From: Klebsiella phage RCIP0009
DNA: 64,000 bases
Sequence record: OR532803.1
Direction: 5' to 3' (one strand)
The notes under the pieces are model-generated. The model saw only the letters and a list, made by a program, of their open reading frames with translations, searched no databases and was not told the origin of the DNA. Numbering within the stretch: the stretch's first letter is position 1; the number at the start of each line of letters is the position of its first letter. A program made the translations under genes and the position numbers. Shown here one piece after another: positions 45,183 through 48,159 of the stretch.

Positions 45183-45356
45183 TTAAATCGGTTTAATGGT
45201 TTTCAGGTGTAGTTTAGCATAAAAAGAACCAAATGAGTTACCATTATGATCAAATTTATAGTTTTCACTATTCCAGTATTTCCCCGATTTCATCAGGGGA
45301 ACACGCTTCTTACCTGCTGTTATCGTTTCAACCATTCCGGTATGAGTAAATGTCAT
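45183..45356 (-). CDS. hypothetical small protein (57 aa)
   Basis: MTFTHTGMVETITAGKKRVPLMKSGKYWNSENYKFDHNGNSFGSFYAKLHLKTIKPI. ATGA-coupled to the upstream gene. Below the track cut-off. Confidence 0.3.
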   Translation of the reverse strand: MTFTHTGMVETITAGKKRVPLMKSGKYWNSENYKFDHNGNSFGSFYAKLHLKTIKPI

Positions 45357-45700
45357 GATATACCCTCTTCTTTCAGCACTTCCCAGATCAGTTTATCAAG
45401 GTGCATCAGGTTCCACATAACCGAATCATAAGAACCCAGTGAGCGGGAGTAAATCACTCCCCATGAACGATAACTTTTCTGGAATGCTTCTGCACTATCT
45501 ACATCATACGGCATATCATCACCGGATGCAATCAAAAGTTTAAGGATCATCAGACTGTTCAGAAGTTTTGAACTAGCGTCTTGTGCTTGTACTTTTGCAC
45601 AATAATTTTCAATAATCGCTTTTGCCTTTGGTTCGGTGATGCGTCCATTTTTGCATCGCTCTTTGTACACATACATAAGTTCATCGATTATTTCTTGCAT
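45353..45700 (-). CDS. hypothetical protein
   Basis: 115-aa ORF. Confidence 0.45.
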   Translation of the reverse strand: MQEIIDELMYVYKERCKNGRITEPKAKAIIENYCAKVQAQDASSKLLNSLMILKLLIASGDDMPYDVDSAEAFQKSYRSWGVIYSRSLGSYDSVMWNLMHLDKLIWEVLKEEGIS

Positions 45701-46034
45701 ACATTCTTTCCTTCTGTTCTGTGCTCATGCCATACAACTGAGAGCGTATACGGTCTTGTATACGACGCGTTTCGTTTTGCATCAGTTGGTTTGAAAGAAT
45801 CAAATCGACCACCGCGCCGCGAACTTTCCATAGATAATCAATCATCGCCATATCTTCATCAGTATGGAAACCCTTCGCATCACATTCATAGATAATGCTT
45901 TGCCTTTCCGCCATTGCCATTTCTGCTGTCGCCGGAGTAGCCAGAGAATATTCATACTTCTCGATCAATGATTCCAGTGTACGTGGTTTTACGGGAATGT
46001 CAACAGTTATTGGACGAATCATATACAGCCCCAC
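45681..46034 (-). CDS. hypothetical protein
   Basis: 117-aa ORF. Confidence 0.45.
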   Translation of the reverse strand: MGLYMIRPITVDIPVKPRTLESLIEKYEYSLATPATAEMAMAERQSIIYECDAKGFHTDEDMAMIDYLWKVRGAVVDLILSNQLMQNETRRIQDRIRSQLYGMSTEQKERMYARNNR

Positions 46035-46315
46035 TTATCACCATCTGCTTTAATCTGTAAATTAGCCAGGAATGAAAACATAATATCACAGTTGCTTTCG
46101 ATTAGATAGCGATATTTTAATACGGTACTTACCTCTTCCGGTTCTACCGTAGTGACCTTAATGTCTTTAGCACAAAGATCATAATCGTTACAGTACCCGT
46201 CAATATCCATAAGCGTTTTGTTTTCATCTGGATATAATTCCAGCAAATACGCATCTTCATCAGTTACCAGCGCAACTATCCGGTTGCGCCTTGTGTTATA
46301 GGTTAAGATCTTCAT
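46019..46315 (-). CDS. hypothetical acidic protein
   Basis: 98 aa, ATGA-coupled to the radical-SAM-like gene. Confidence 0.45.
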   Translation of the reverse strand: MKILTYNTRRNRIVALVTDEDAYLLELYPDENKTLMDIDGYCNDYDLCAKDIKVTTVEPEEVSTVLKYRYLIESNCDIMFSFLANLQIKADGDKWGCI

Positions 46316-47574
46316 TTCAATTCCACCGCGTATACATCCAATTCAGGGGCTTTGTGTACGCGCATATCTTTACCACATACAGCATAAGCCGGACAGTTAC
46401 GGCAACCATTATGATCCTTATTACCGATCAATTCCTGACGGAATTTCTTAGTTTTCGGATGTTCCCAGATATCTTTGATAAAGTCACTGGCTTCCAGTAC
46501 GTTAAGCCCTTCTGACCATCCACCCTCGACCCAACGTTCAGTAAAGGAACAAGGGAAGAATTCACCCTTCTCGTTGATGTACGAGCTAAACATAGTTGCT
46601 TCGCAATCTTCCGCGTACTGTTTGTATTGTTCAAAATTTTCATGCCCTTCCATAGCCTCTACAAAGGCCGGAGCGGAACAGGAATCAAAACCGAACCCTA
46701 CACCGGATTCAAGGCAATAATCTACCAGCGCTTTATACTGCTCGCGTGTAACGGTATCCCAGTTCTTCCCACGACCTTTTTGTTTCAGACCCAGGAATAC
46801 GATCGCGTTAACTTGTTTCAAGCGCGGATCATTCTTTACAGCATCAACCACGTTAAACGCGTCATCATAGGTTTTAGAGCTAACCATGAAATGAAGGTTG
46901 ATTTGCTGTTGTCCGGCTTCCGCCAGATTAGCCGCTGAATTAAACGCGACATCGAATCCAGCATGTTTGTATACTGATACCGCAACAGCCCCAGCAACAG
47001 CCGCTAAACGCGCTGCAACGTCTTTTGATACATCAGCAATGGTAAGGTTTGGTACAATGCCTTTAGAACGCGCATAGGCCATCATATCAAACATATCAGG
47101 GTTTGTTTGTCCCTGTGCATCAGCACCGAGGGCGCATTGTGTTAACCAGGGCATTTTATCAATGATAGATTTGAATGTATCAAGATCCATATTGAAGCCG
47201 TTAGGGTTATTAGACTTGTAGCAGAAACCGCAAAGTTTACCAGCAGGGCCATTGCATTTAGTTGTGATCTCGATATCGAGAATTTCGGGGAAGGGGGCAT
47301 AGGTAGGATCAGTTTCGAACGATGTTCCCCAGCGAGCAAACTCACCAGTTTTAACGTTGAAATTGTAGTTATACCACTTAGAGCGAGCGTAACGGATATC
47401 ACCATCTTGATAGATGAACAGGGTAGGAGCTTTCAGAACAGTTTGTGCGTTATTCATAATATAATTCTCAAAATCTAACATGGGATTGGAAGACAGCGCG
47501 AGCGAGACTTTCATTATCAAACGGTATTGATTGGTGTTGTCCTTTGCTATCAATGTTAACGCGCCAAAATTCAC
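46312..47574 (-). CDS. radical-SAM-like Fe-S enzyme with SPASM/twitch-like C-terminal Cys cluster (function unknown)
   Basis: DIEITTKCNGPAGKLCGFCY (non-canonical C-x7-C-x2-C in the usual radical-SAM position) and the C-terminal FPCSF...HNGCRNCPAYAVCG (CxxCx5C). The true start is probably internal (47460-47514), because the track ORF overlaps the upstream 71-aa gene. Confidence 0.5.
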   Translation of the reverse strand: MNFGALTLIAKDNTNQYRLIMKVSLALSSNPMLDFENYIMNNAQTVLKAPTLFIYQDGDIRYARSKWYNYNFNVKTGEFARWGTSFETDPTYAPFPEILDIEITTKCNGPAGKLCGFCYKSNNPNGFNMDLDTFKSIIDKMPWLTQCALGADAQGQTNPDMFDMMAYARSKGIVPNLTIADVSKDVAARLAAVAGAVAVSVYKHAGFDVAFNSAANLAEAGQQQINLHFMVSSKTYDDAFNVVDAVKNDPRLKQVNAIVFLGLKQKGRGKNWDTVTREQYKALVDYCLESGVGFGFDSCSAPAFVEAMEGHENFEQYKQYAEDCEATMFSSYINEKGEFFPCSFTERWVEGGWSEGLNVLEASDFIKDIWEHPKTKKFRQELIGNKDHNGCRNCPAYAVCGKDMRVHKAPELDVYAVELK

Positions 47575-47683
47575 TAGAACAATTTTCAGTGGAGTAGTTC
47601 AACAGCGTTACCGTTTTATTCTTTTCCAAAAATACGCGTTTGTCAATCTCTGTTTTGATTACGTGTTCCATCATTTTACCCAC
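47468..47683 (-). CDS. hypothetical protein
   Basis: 71-aa ORF. Confidence 0.4.
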   Translation of the reverse strand: MGKMMEHVIKTEIDKRVFLEKNKTVTLLNYSTENCSSEFWRVNIDSKGQHQSIPFDNESLARAVFQSHVRF

Positions 47684-47928
47684 CGTTGTTTGCGTTCGTC
47701 AGCCAGTTCTTTTTTGTACACCTTGATGTATTCGCCGTTCAAGGCACGGAGATTTGAAAATACACGATTGAAAAGATTTTTCTTTTCTTTGTATGCCGGA
47801 GACATACGGATCGATTCAATAGTCATACCCATTTCATTTTTAGGATATGCTCTTAACTCTGCGCCGATCTCATCAATCCATTTTTGGTACTGATCGCGCT
47901 GTGCTTTGTACTGTTCAAAAGTCAACAT
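47671..47928 (-). CDS. hypothetical basic protein
   Basis: 85-aa ORF. Confidence 0.45.
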   Translation of the reverse strand: MLTFEQYKAQRDQYQKWIDEIGAELRAYPKNEMGMTIESIRMSPAYKEKKNLFNRVFSNLRALNGEYIKVYKKELADERKQRWVK

Positions 47929-47988
47929 ATAATTTCCTCACATTTCGTTGGGTTCAATATAACCCTATAAAGAACCAAACGCAAGAGT

Positions 47989-48159
47989 TATTTGTACTTC
48001 ATAAAGAATTTAACTGCTTCTTCCGGTGTCATATCGTCAGAGAACAACCCGAAGAAAGTACGATGATGATCTTTGTACGAAATGTTAAGTGGGTTCAATA
48101 AACATCTAACCTCTTCAACCCATTGATAGTATTTTTTGCTGAACGGTTGATCTCTCATT
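47989..48159 (-). CDS. hypothetical small protein (56 aa)
   Basis: MRDQPFSKKYYQWVEEVRCLLNPLNISYKDHHRTFFGLFSDDMTPEEAVKFFMKYK. Below the track cut-off. Confidence 0.3.

Follow-up and report, generated by a model that had tools for sequence, protein, structure and literature searches.

The window, the whole stretch of 64,000 nucleotides that was analysed, belongs to a T4-like Klebsiella phage (Slopekvirus), and every gene of the cluster at 45183-48159 is encoded on its minus strand. Among them is the gene for a radical-SAM/twitch-SPASM enzyme of 381 aa (46312..47457, minus strand). In-frame upstream starts reach 47574, such that the longest open reading frame (46312..47574) encodes 420 aa from a GTG codon; the 381-aa form uses the start given for the gene in the GenBank record of a near-identical phage, and the PHROG profile begins nearby. 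The product is a genuine, phage-specific radical-SAM enzyme, which is 40-70% identical among dozens of unrelated phages and belongs to a system essentially restricted to viral sequences. The sequence-only reading that drew attention to the locus had described the enzyme as uncharacterised, and this holds: some GenBank records already label the gene “radical SAM protein”, with no function or partner being proposed there.

The canonical radical-SAM motif, CX3CX2C, binds the [4Fe-4S] cluster that cleaves SAM. The corresponding motif of the window enzyme is C68-x7-C76-x2-C79 (CNGPAGKLCGFC; 47221..47256, minus strand), with an aromatic residue preceding the third cysteine (CGFC) and the first cysteine being residue 68 of the 381-aa form or 107 of the 420-aa reading frame. 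Its earlier description as “non-canonical” was right in that the C-x7-C-x2-C arrangement is present, but as judged by comparison of homologs it is a loop-length variant of CX3CX2C: X7 is the commonest spacing after the first cysteine in the family, the canonical spacing occurs in 19 of 81 loci, and X5, X6, X8, X12 and X13 are found among other homologs. Across 30 homologs with 45-90% identity, no variation was seen at C68, C76, C79, C260, C285 or C303 and hardly any at C355, and the cysteines are conserved in more than 1,500 homologs. Lack of cysteine conservation had been named beforehand as one of two grounds for refutation; the residues are kept and are not a product of chance. The Pfam Radical_SAM model (PF04055) did not match the window enzyme at E<=1; P0084, a homolog with canonical spacing, has a precomputed match to it. 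The predicted fold (pLDDT 92) contains the partial (beta/alpha)6 TIM-barrel core, in which a conserved A-L-G-A-D-A-Q-G after strand 2 places G111-A-D113 at the position of the GGE-type SAM-binding motif. Preceding this core is a conserved N-terminal domain of four beta strands (residues 12-45; 47323..47424, minus strand), whose strands the AF2 model places at residues 13-18, 21-25, 30-34 and 40-43 and which is marked by YNYNFN..TG.F.RWG in the homolog alignment.

Further towards the C-terminus, profiles and cysteine conservation delineate a truncated SPASM or twitch-like auxiliary Fe-S region (46375..46680, minus strand) comprising C260, C285-x12-G-x4-C303 and C352-x2-C355-x5-C361. The C-terminal FPCSF cysteine cluster of SPASM/twitch type that had been read from the sequence is present, as FPC303SF and C352RNC355PAYAVC361G. 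Pfam SPASM (PF13186) was matched above its cut-off (27.7 bits versus 21.5); of the two profiles proposed earlier as checks, TIGR04085 scored just under its cut-off (24.3 bits versus 27) and PF04055 was the negative one. The full seven-cysteine SPASM motif, CX9-15GX4C...CX2CX5CX3C...C, which holds two auxiliary clusters, is not present in the enzyme, where the fourth and last cysteines are missing. C352-x2-C355-x5-C361 is found in the clade of the window enzyme, and because C260, C285, C303 and C355 are the only auxiliary cysteines conserved family-wide, the enzyme is predicted to hold one conserved auxiliary Fe-S site of four cysteines, of the twitch-like or truncated SPASM type. Cysteine conservation, profile matches and fold together bear out the claim that this is a true radical-SAM enzyme, whose cluster motif is a variant and whose auxiliary domain is of the SPASM/twitch type.

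The nearest structural relatives of the predicted fold are the peptide- and protein-modifying maturases SuiB, SkfB, PqqE and anSME. The sole sequence match in the PDB was to the twitch domain of BtrN (E 0.008), and the twitch-domain radical-SAM dehydrogenases have in common with the phage enzyme a single auxiliary cluster, bound by a CX(n)GX4C hairpin together with later Cys. The enzyme matched none of the anSME family models, and NCBIfam yielded only weak partial matches to other radical-SAM models. Its resemblance to anSME/AtsB is limited to logic and fold, with an identity of only ~17%; anSME/AtsB possess two auxiliary cluster sites, whereas one is conserved here, and the phage enzyme has the extra N-terminal beta domain.

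The enzyme gene is accompanied by 13 lineage-specific mini-genes in a probable early transcription unit on the minus strand (44124..48782), delineated from gene couplings and a promoter/terminator scan. This block of 14 genes runs from a promoter-like repeat, a member of a repeat family (48735-48782), to a terminator-like hairpin (44124-44139). The ATGA coupling of the small neighbours reported earlier was verified at seven start/stop overlaps (83>49>65>56, 85>68, rSAM>98>113 and 115>57), and three tandem paralogous mini-genes lie upstream of the enzyme. The neighbours are nevertheless fewer than the “about 11” first counted, the interval 45183-48159 holding 8 genes by the ORF list and 9 annotated features in GenBank relatives, and they are not uniformly “acidic”, with net charges from +6 to -12. 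No late promoter (TATAAATA) was found near the enzyme unit or near either of the tagged genes described below, which argues, as weak evidence only, against late or structural expression of the two loci.

Tight translational coupling and the three tandem paralogs would suit a RiPP-like maturation operon in which one or more of the mini-ORFs serve as precursors, as the sequence-only reading had suggested, but such an operon is now very improbable. By tblastn, the 13 flanking mini-ORFs were matched only within the Slopekvirus/RB43-like clade, whereas dozens of unrelated phages have the enzyme; accordingly, no adjacent precursor-peptide gene co-occurring with the enzyme across its relatives was found among them. 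They have no leader-like motif in common, their charges and compositions are unremarkable, and the Cys/Ser/Thr-rich, precursor-like peptides expected of such an operon were not found among them. No Pfam domain for a RiPP recognition element (RRE), a leader protease or an exporter was detected in the enzyme or its neighbours, and neighbourhood clustering revealed no protease, transporter or exporter family consistently linked to the enzyme. The phyletic pattern largely refutes the operon, and on it the flanking mini-ORFs were rejected as precursors or partners, leaving the 13 mini-genes as context without a conserved-partner role. The phage system likewise differs from the RiPP radical-SAM maturases (SuiB, SkfB, PqqE, CteB, ChlB and TigE) in having no detected PqqD-like RRE and no consistently linked protease or transporter, and in being essentially confined to viral sequences.

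The conserved partners of the enzyme in distant phages are likely to be a set of N-terminally tagged proteins, and not the adjacent mini-ORFs. In these phages, 1-13 genes for small acidic tagged proteins adjoin the enzyme gene on the same strand. Across 64 enzyme loci, dereplicated at 90% identity and searched with a strict tag pattern, a tagged gene was located within 8 kb in 50, within 2 kb in 42 and within 500 nt in 26. All of the tag genes (203/203) had the orientation of the enzyme gene, and they became 24-fold less dense with distance, from 4.8 per 10 kb at 0-1 kb to 0.2 at 7-8 kb. A slightly relaxed pattern retrieved a tag gene in 63 of 81 loci; eight of the 18 tag-less loci were Slopekvirus/RB43-like, with tagged genes beyond the sampled flanks. 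About 14-22% of the sampled loci are without a tag within 8 kb. That the tag-less loci represent a separate enzyme clade was considered and rejected, since they are scattered over the tree, the Slopekvirus/RB43-like clade apart. The linkage was also recovered in reverse, with the enzyme present in 44 of 119 DNA stretches (mean 7.9 kb) found by the tag pattern alone, and in an independent set from genome assemblies (14 of 25 loci). No other gene family was consistently linked to the enzyme by neighbourhood clustering. It is considered rather improbable that the enzyme acts on something other than a protein, for example a small molecule, a cofactor or a base in DNA or tRNA; in that case the tagged genes would be neighbours in a variable region or downstream users of the product.

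The tag has the 16-residue, serine-rich consensus M-K-x-R-x-G-F-V-S-N-S-S-S-S-S-F and is the sole common feature of small, acidic proteins of about 90-390 aa, being attached to unrelated bodies, some of which contain zinc-ribbon-like CxxC pairs. Approximately 5,200 cluster representatives in public data bear it, and contigs that were binned together with archaea and Patescibacteria contain the family as well. Of 264 loose matches, 227 begin exactly 6 residues after the methionine. Neither Pfam nor NCBIfam has a family for the tag, Pfam, NCBIfam and PHROG annotation of the tagged proteins was uninformative, and a literature search on the tag sequence and on phage radical-SAM/SPASM systems returned generic annotations but no relevant paper. 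Both AGY and TCN codons are used at every serine position of the tag, so that selection acts on the protein. When tagged paralogs of a single genome are compared, 42% of the identical codons show synonymous differences, and the identity of their tags is therefore not due to gene conversion. A repeat acting at the DNA or RNA level, or gene conversion, was thereby ruled out. In some genomes one tag variant is common to all paralogs, for instance Thr6 (9 copies, 4 codons) or Ser6 with Ala9 (4 copies). The R-x-G-F segment was also considered as a glycyl-radical-type activation site, the known activation motif being RVxG, and was rejected because the spacing differs and whole genomes have Thr or Ser in place of Gly6.

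Two tagged genes are present in the window, both on the minus strand, ~20 kb from the enzyme and outside the interval 45183-48159, at positions regarded as upstream. Their products are candidate substrates identified by a motif scan: m171 (26414..26929; 171 aa, net charge -15), with the tag MKIRSGFVSNSSSSSF at 26882-26929, and m156 (22559..23029; 156 aa, net charge -17), with the tag MKIRSGFVSNSSSSSF at 22982-23029. Searches of the PDB by sequence and by fold gave no significant match for either. m171 falls in phrog_7397, of unknown function, has the C-terminal motif D..G......EHG.IF.N..H...SHH, and has a 43%-identical homolog lying 1 kb downstream of the radical-SAM gene in another locus (L009). 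In its AF2 model, residues 1-10 are disordered (pLDDT < 50) and residues 13-20 form strand 1, and the tag is accordingly predicted by the model to be an exposed tail. In the m171 subfamily, Ser13-15 at the end of the serine run start strand 1 beside the conserved D145, E155, H156 and H171, and the serines of the tag could therefore belong to a functional site themselves. Among 50,697 cultured-phage records, the enzyme was found in 173, m171 in 174 and m156 in the same 173 as the enzyme, all in the same genera; being confined to one clade, this co-occurrence is to be expected for any clade-specific gene.

T4 internal proteins are small and hypervariable, are encoded in plastic genome regions and have a conserved N-terminal capsid-targeting sequence, which the prohead scaffold recognises and the prohead protease cleaves. 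The tagged proteins are alike in being hypervariable small proteins of T4-type phages, with a short common N-terminal peptide and genes in plastic regions. The tag might by analogy be a targeting or packaging signal that operates independently of the enzyme, the proximity of the two being incidental. Two observations would fit such a signal: in tandem arrays of T4-like and large phages, small proteins that are otherwise hypervariable keep the same short N-terminus, and the m156 body without its tag matches phrog_132 (E 2e-9), a PHROG annotated “head-tail adaptor”. There is, however, only a slim chance of this: no radical-SAM enzyme is involved in the T4 case, whose tag sequence is unrelated to the serine-rich one, the linkage to the enzyme spans very distant phages in both search directions, and neither tagged gene has a late promoter nearby. 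For those members of the family whose contigs were binned with archaea or Patescibacteria, the virion biology also need not resemble that of T4.

On balance, the enzyme is probably a protein maturase that modifies the tag of the small acidic phage proteins, the tag as substrate and the chemistry being inferred. The exposed N-terminal tail would dock, perhaps through beta-augmentation, on the N-terminal beta domain of the enzyme, a candidate tag-binding element. Reductive cleavage of SAM would then generate a 5'-deoxyadenosyl radical to take a hydrogen atom from a residue in the F-V-S-N-S-S-S-S-S-F segment, with the auxiliary cluster accepting an electron or helping to position the substrate. 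In order of preference, a serine might be oxidised to a carbonyl of the formylglycine type, as by anSME and BtrN; a C-C or C-O crosslink with Phe, Ser or Asn might be formed, as by SuiB, DarE and the three-residue cyclophane enzymes; or a residue might be epimerised, as by EpeE/YydG. Each tagged protein would then depend on its modified tag to function, much as sulfatases depend on formylglycine. The putative substrate segment, at the extreme N-terminus, differs from the (C/S)-x-(P/A)-x-R motif recognised by anSME/AtsB, which is absent from the tag, and in place of sulfatases the candidate substrates are small, acidic proteins of phages, their bodies being unrelated. RiPP precursors, for their part, contain a short core peptide, whereas here folded domains of 80-370 residues are predicted after a conserved segment of 16. 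Counting against the maturase reading are the ~20 kb between enzyme and tagged genes in the window, the loci with no tag within 8 kb, the confinement of the cultured-phage co-occurrence to one clade, the possible functional site formed by the serines in the m171 subfamily, the lack of a PF04055 match and the G-A-D in place of GGE.

The same linkage data would fit a tag that serves unmodified as a docking peptide, with the tagged proteins being regulators of its activity or interchangeable adaptors that recruit the enzyme to host or phage proteins or nucleic acid. The variable bodies, with their unrelated folds and occasional CxxC pairs, resemble specificity modules, and genome-specific tag variants suit any common binding partner. 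Docking without modification is nonetheless unlikely, for it leaves the invariant run of five or six serines plus Asn unexplained, every one of the enzymes nearest in structure modifies the peptide that it binds, and up to 13 adaptors per enzyme would be unusual.

Beyond the modification of the tag itself, it is proposed more tentatively, with somewhat less than even confidence, that a widespread, virus-specific maturation system is at hand, in which a dedicated radical-SAM enzyme would equip the portable tag, 16 residues long, with a novel residue or crosslink, phages adding this tag to a growing and fast-diversifying array of small acidic effectors. Such a system, with up to 13 tagged proteins per genome, would constitute a new class of enzyme-dependent protein tag and offer a single handle on candidate host-takeover or anti-defence proteins. 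Through the link between enzyme and tag, what was an orphan annotation already becomes a two-component system that can be tested, of one enzyme and one 16-residue peptide. If the tag is modified, whole viral proteins would form a new substrate class for radical-SAM maturases, possibly with new chemistry, thousands of “hypothetical” small proteins of T4-like and jumbo phages would gain a first functional lead, and the compact enzyme/tag pair might serve protein engineering.

Slopekviruses are candidate agents for phage therapy of Klebsiella, and a maturase that is conserved and sensitive to oxygen could therefore affect the performance of these phages under aerobic and anaerobic conditions. The enzyme is also carried by a single Vibrio phage record.

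The protein encoded at 46312-47457 on the minus strand is a radical-SAM enzyme of 381 residues, numbered here from that start. It had first been read as a long open reading frame of 420 residues from a GTG (46312..47574), in which DIEITTKCNGPAGKLCGFCY, FPCSF, and HNGCRNCPAYAVCG were all found as claimed. The shorter form follows the annotation of a 98.8%-identical phage, whose start for this gene coincides with the beginning of the PHROG profile. The start is ambiguous because a 68-residue ORF annotated in relatives (47468-47674, minus strand) overlaps the in-frame N-terminal extension; a strong Shine-Dalgarno sequence was found at none of the four candidates (ATG at 47457, 47481, or 47514 and GTG at 47574). 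The predicted SPASM-type C-terminal domain was borne out by a Pfam match of 27.7 bits against a cut-off of 21.5, this being the sole Pfam domain reported; the Pfam search gave no match to the PF04055 profile, and NCBIfam returned weak partial matches to radical-SAM maturase models. In the confident AlphaFold model (pLDDT 91.7), an N-terminal beta domain of four strands precedes six beta/alpha units and a Cys-rich C-terminal part. The family comprises more than 1,555 matches, the best 120 all sharing at least 45% identity.

An alignment of 30 homologues shows no variation at C68, C76, C79, C260, C285, or C303, and hardly any at C355. The CX7CX2C motif described by the sequence-only reading as non-canonical is indeed present, but represents an inserted loop in an otherwise ordinary radical-SAM motif, since the first spacing varies (X7 is commonest, alongside X5, X6, X8, X12, and X13) and 19 of the 81 homologous loci have the canonical CX3CX2C. 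C285-x12-G-x4-C303 fits the pattern of a SPASM/twitch hairpin. This clade also has C352-x2-C355-x5-C361; family-wide only C355 is kept and many homologues end soon after, so the conserved auxiliary feature is a single, twitch-like four-Cys site. A C-P-x-[YF]-x-[IV] motif lies a few residues before the C-terminus in many homologues.

The small genes flanking the enzyme had been proposed to form a RiPP-like operon with it. Their ATGA coupling was confirmed by seven start/stop overlaps; the interval 45183-48159 holds eight genes in our own ORF list (nine annotated features in GenBank relatives) instead of about 11, and the products, claimed to be acidic, range in net charge from +6 to -12 and are not uniformly so. 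When all ORFs up to 8 kb from the enzyme were clustered across 80 IMG/VR loci encoding enzyme homologues, the mini-ORFs of the window grouped solely with 8-9 loci of their own clade, and tblastn of the 13 mini-ORFs gave no match in any more distant locus. By this distribution they are lineage-specific genes that happen to be on the same transcript, and a RiPP operon of enzyme and mini-ORFs is largely excluded by the phyletic pattern. Three of the mini-genes, upstream of the enzyme, are ATGA-coupled tandem paralogues of 56, 65, and 49 residues (47988-48158, 48155-48352, and 48349-48498, minus strand; phrog_8655/8088) confined to the Slopekvirus/RB43-like clade. The sole flanking mini-gene with a Pfam family encodes a 115-residue, full-length DUF7238 member (45353-45700, minus strand; E 3e-49).

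The biggest neighbour cluster in the same sample (146 ORFs, 52 loci) shares with several smaller clusters a common start, M-[KR]-x-R-x-G-F-V-S-N-S-S-S-S-S-F, hereafter the tag, followed by unrelated, mostly acidic bodies (median 133 residues, median net charge -9). A loose tag pattern occurred 264 times in 62 of 81 sequences, and in 227 of these matches the tag stands exactly six residues past the Met and on the strand of the enzyme; the tag is strictly N-terminal. After dereplication of the enzymes at 90% identity into 64 groups, a strict-tag gene lay within 8 kb in 50 groups, within 2 kb in 42, and within 500 nt in 26, with all 203 tag genes co-oriented with the enzyme and their density per 10 kb falling from 4.8 (0-1 kb away) to 0.2 (7-8 kb). 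Certain loci that seemed to lack the tag have a variant of it, for example FVANSSSSSF in four paralogues of one locus (L074), and a slightly relaxed pattern placed a tag gene at 63 of 81 loci. Eight of the 18 loci without one are Slopekvirus/RB43-like, their tagged genes lying beyond the flanks that were sampled; the remaining ten are spread over the enzyme tree. A divergent homologue (37% identity; locus L078, 4541-6498) has no serine tags nearby and is preceded by five tandem paralogues starting M-[KT]-E-[HP]-Y-P-Y-R-F-K-T-E-[AT]-E-F-I-[KE]-E-F-G, possibly an alternative conserved N-terminus that goes with a diverged enzyme.

The genetic linkage also holds in reverse: a degenerate DNA pattern of the tag alone retrieved at least 119 viral-contig stretches (mean length 7.9 kb), and among the matches listed the enzyme was present in 44 of the 119, with at least 11 further stretches coming from contigs on which it had already been identified. 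In an independent set of loci from genome assemblies, tag genes adjoin the enzyme in 14 of 25.

A six-frame motif scan of the window found exactly two ORFs beginning MKIRSGFVSNSSSSSF, both on the minus strand and about 20 kb from the enzyme: m156 (22559-23029, 156 residues) and m171 (26414-26929, 171 residues). In another locus (L009), where the enzyme shares 67% identity with that of the window, a full-length m171 homologue (43% identity) is encoded 1 kb downstream of it. Among cultured phages, m171 is present in 174 records and m156 in 173, distributed over genera in the same way as the enzyme, a co-occurrence consistent with linkage but weak, as any clade-specific gene would show the same pattern. 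Removing the tag does not abolish the match of the m156 body to phrog_132 'head-tail adaptor' (E 2e-9), which is why some GenBank records name the protein so; searches found no counterpart of it among Pfam adaptor families or PDB sequences. Between m156 and m171 sits a gene (23870-26086, minus strand) whose 738-residue product (phrog_2426, function unknown) carries a von Willebrand A domain at its N-terminus; a 27%-identical homologue of this product occurs in a tag locus (L112) that also has a partial radical-SAM gene.

Selection on the tag acts at the protein level, as every serine position of the tag is encoded by AGY in some genes and by TCN in others, two codon classes separated by two mutations. 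Upstream of the tag-gene ATG, no conserved element was found beyond a purine-rich, ribosome-binding-site-like bias. Gene conversion among tag paralogues was ruled out: synonymous differences affect 42% of identical codons between paralogues of one genome against 51% between genomes, marking old duplicates. Certain variants are common to all paralogues of a genome, namely Thr6 (nine copies in L016, using four codons) and Ser6 with Ala9 (all four L074 copies), as would be expected from one recognition partner particular to each genome. In L219, two of the four copies have Cys at tag position 14. The variants of L016, L074, and L219 would be useful for covariation analysis with the enzyme.

The tag is predicted to be exposed: in the AlphaFold model of m171 (pLDDT 82.9), residues 1-10 are of low confidence and SSSFIVRF forms strand 1 of a three-stranded sheet, a predicted fold for which a PDB search gave no match. 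Bodies of the m171 type share a conserved C-terminal D..G......EHG.IF.N..H...SHH, and a second type is zinc-ribbon-like with CxxC pairs. Searched against 1.84 billion proteins, a profile from the m171 alignment matched 5,246 cluster representatives (E<=0.001); of the best 150 listed, nearly all align from residue 1. No Pfam or NCBIfam model covers the tagged proteins, the PHROGs that match them give no tested function, and full-text literature searches on the tag and on phage radical-SAM/SPASM systems yielded nothing on the enzyme-tag link.

The best-supported reading is an enzyme-substrate pair in which a radical-SAM maturase would modify a short invariant motif common to a protein family, following the same logic as anSME and its sulfatases. 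The tag is inferred to reach the active site and to be altered there. As a first guess, the enzyme would oxidise a tag serine to a formylglycine-type carbonyl, given the anSME/BtrN analogy and the many conserved acidic residues beside the auxiliary-site Cys in the sequence; a Phe/Ser/Asn crosslink or epimerisation is about as plausible, and each of these chemistries taken singly is rather unlikely. Rival readings, besides the RiPP operon discussed above, are that the tag would be a docking peptide of adaptor subunits, that the enzyme would act on a non-protein substrate, or that the tag would be a targeting signal independent of the enzyme. The gene is already annotated in some records, and radical-SAM/SPASM maturases with cognate substrates are a known kind of system; new are the proposed substrate class, whole phage proteins bearing a portable N-terminal tag in up to 13 copies per genome, the viral restriction, and possibly the chemistry. 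The link is of high interest because it is directly testable.

The enzyme family is essentially viral. A search of 185,579 species-representative genomes gave 25 occurrences, of which 24 are metagenome-assembled contigs; the sole isolate assembly is a 178-kb contig with a copy 90% identical to the window protein. Among cultured phages, 173 of 50,697 records encode it, almost all Slopekvirus-, RB43-, or Karamvirus-like phages of enterobacteria. Klebsiella phage phi_KPN_S3 is 100% identical to the interval around the enzyme and many other Klebsiella phages are 97-100% identical; the 98.8%-identical phage is classified in its record as Straboviridae, genus Slopekvirus (T4-like).

All genes of this region lie on the minus strand and would seem to form an early or middle transcription unit, in view of a repeated promoter-like element upstream, a terminator-like hairpin downstream (44124-44139), and the lack of any late-promoter consensus nearby. 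The repeat, of about 50-80 nt (48735-48782, 49097-49174, 49494-49575, 51189-51270, and 55600-55681, minus strand; stem-loop only at 59559-59596), runs from a GC-rich stem-loop through a -10-like TATATT/TATTAC to a conserved leader that includes a Shine-Dalgarno sequence. It resembles the promoter-early stem-loop cassettes of T4-type phages and appears to mark a plastic early region. Elsewhere in the window, the translation of a 303-residue ORF (28200-29111, minus strand) contains FPCQ and ENV motifs typical of C5 cytosine DNA methyltransferases; this ORF may be relevant to the DNA modification that papers on slopekviruses discuss.
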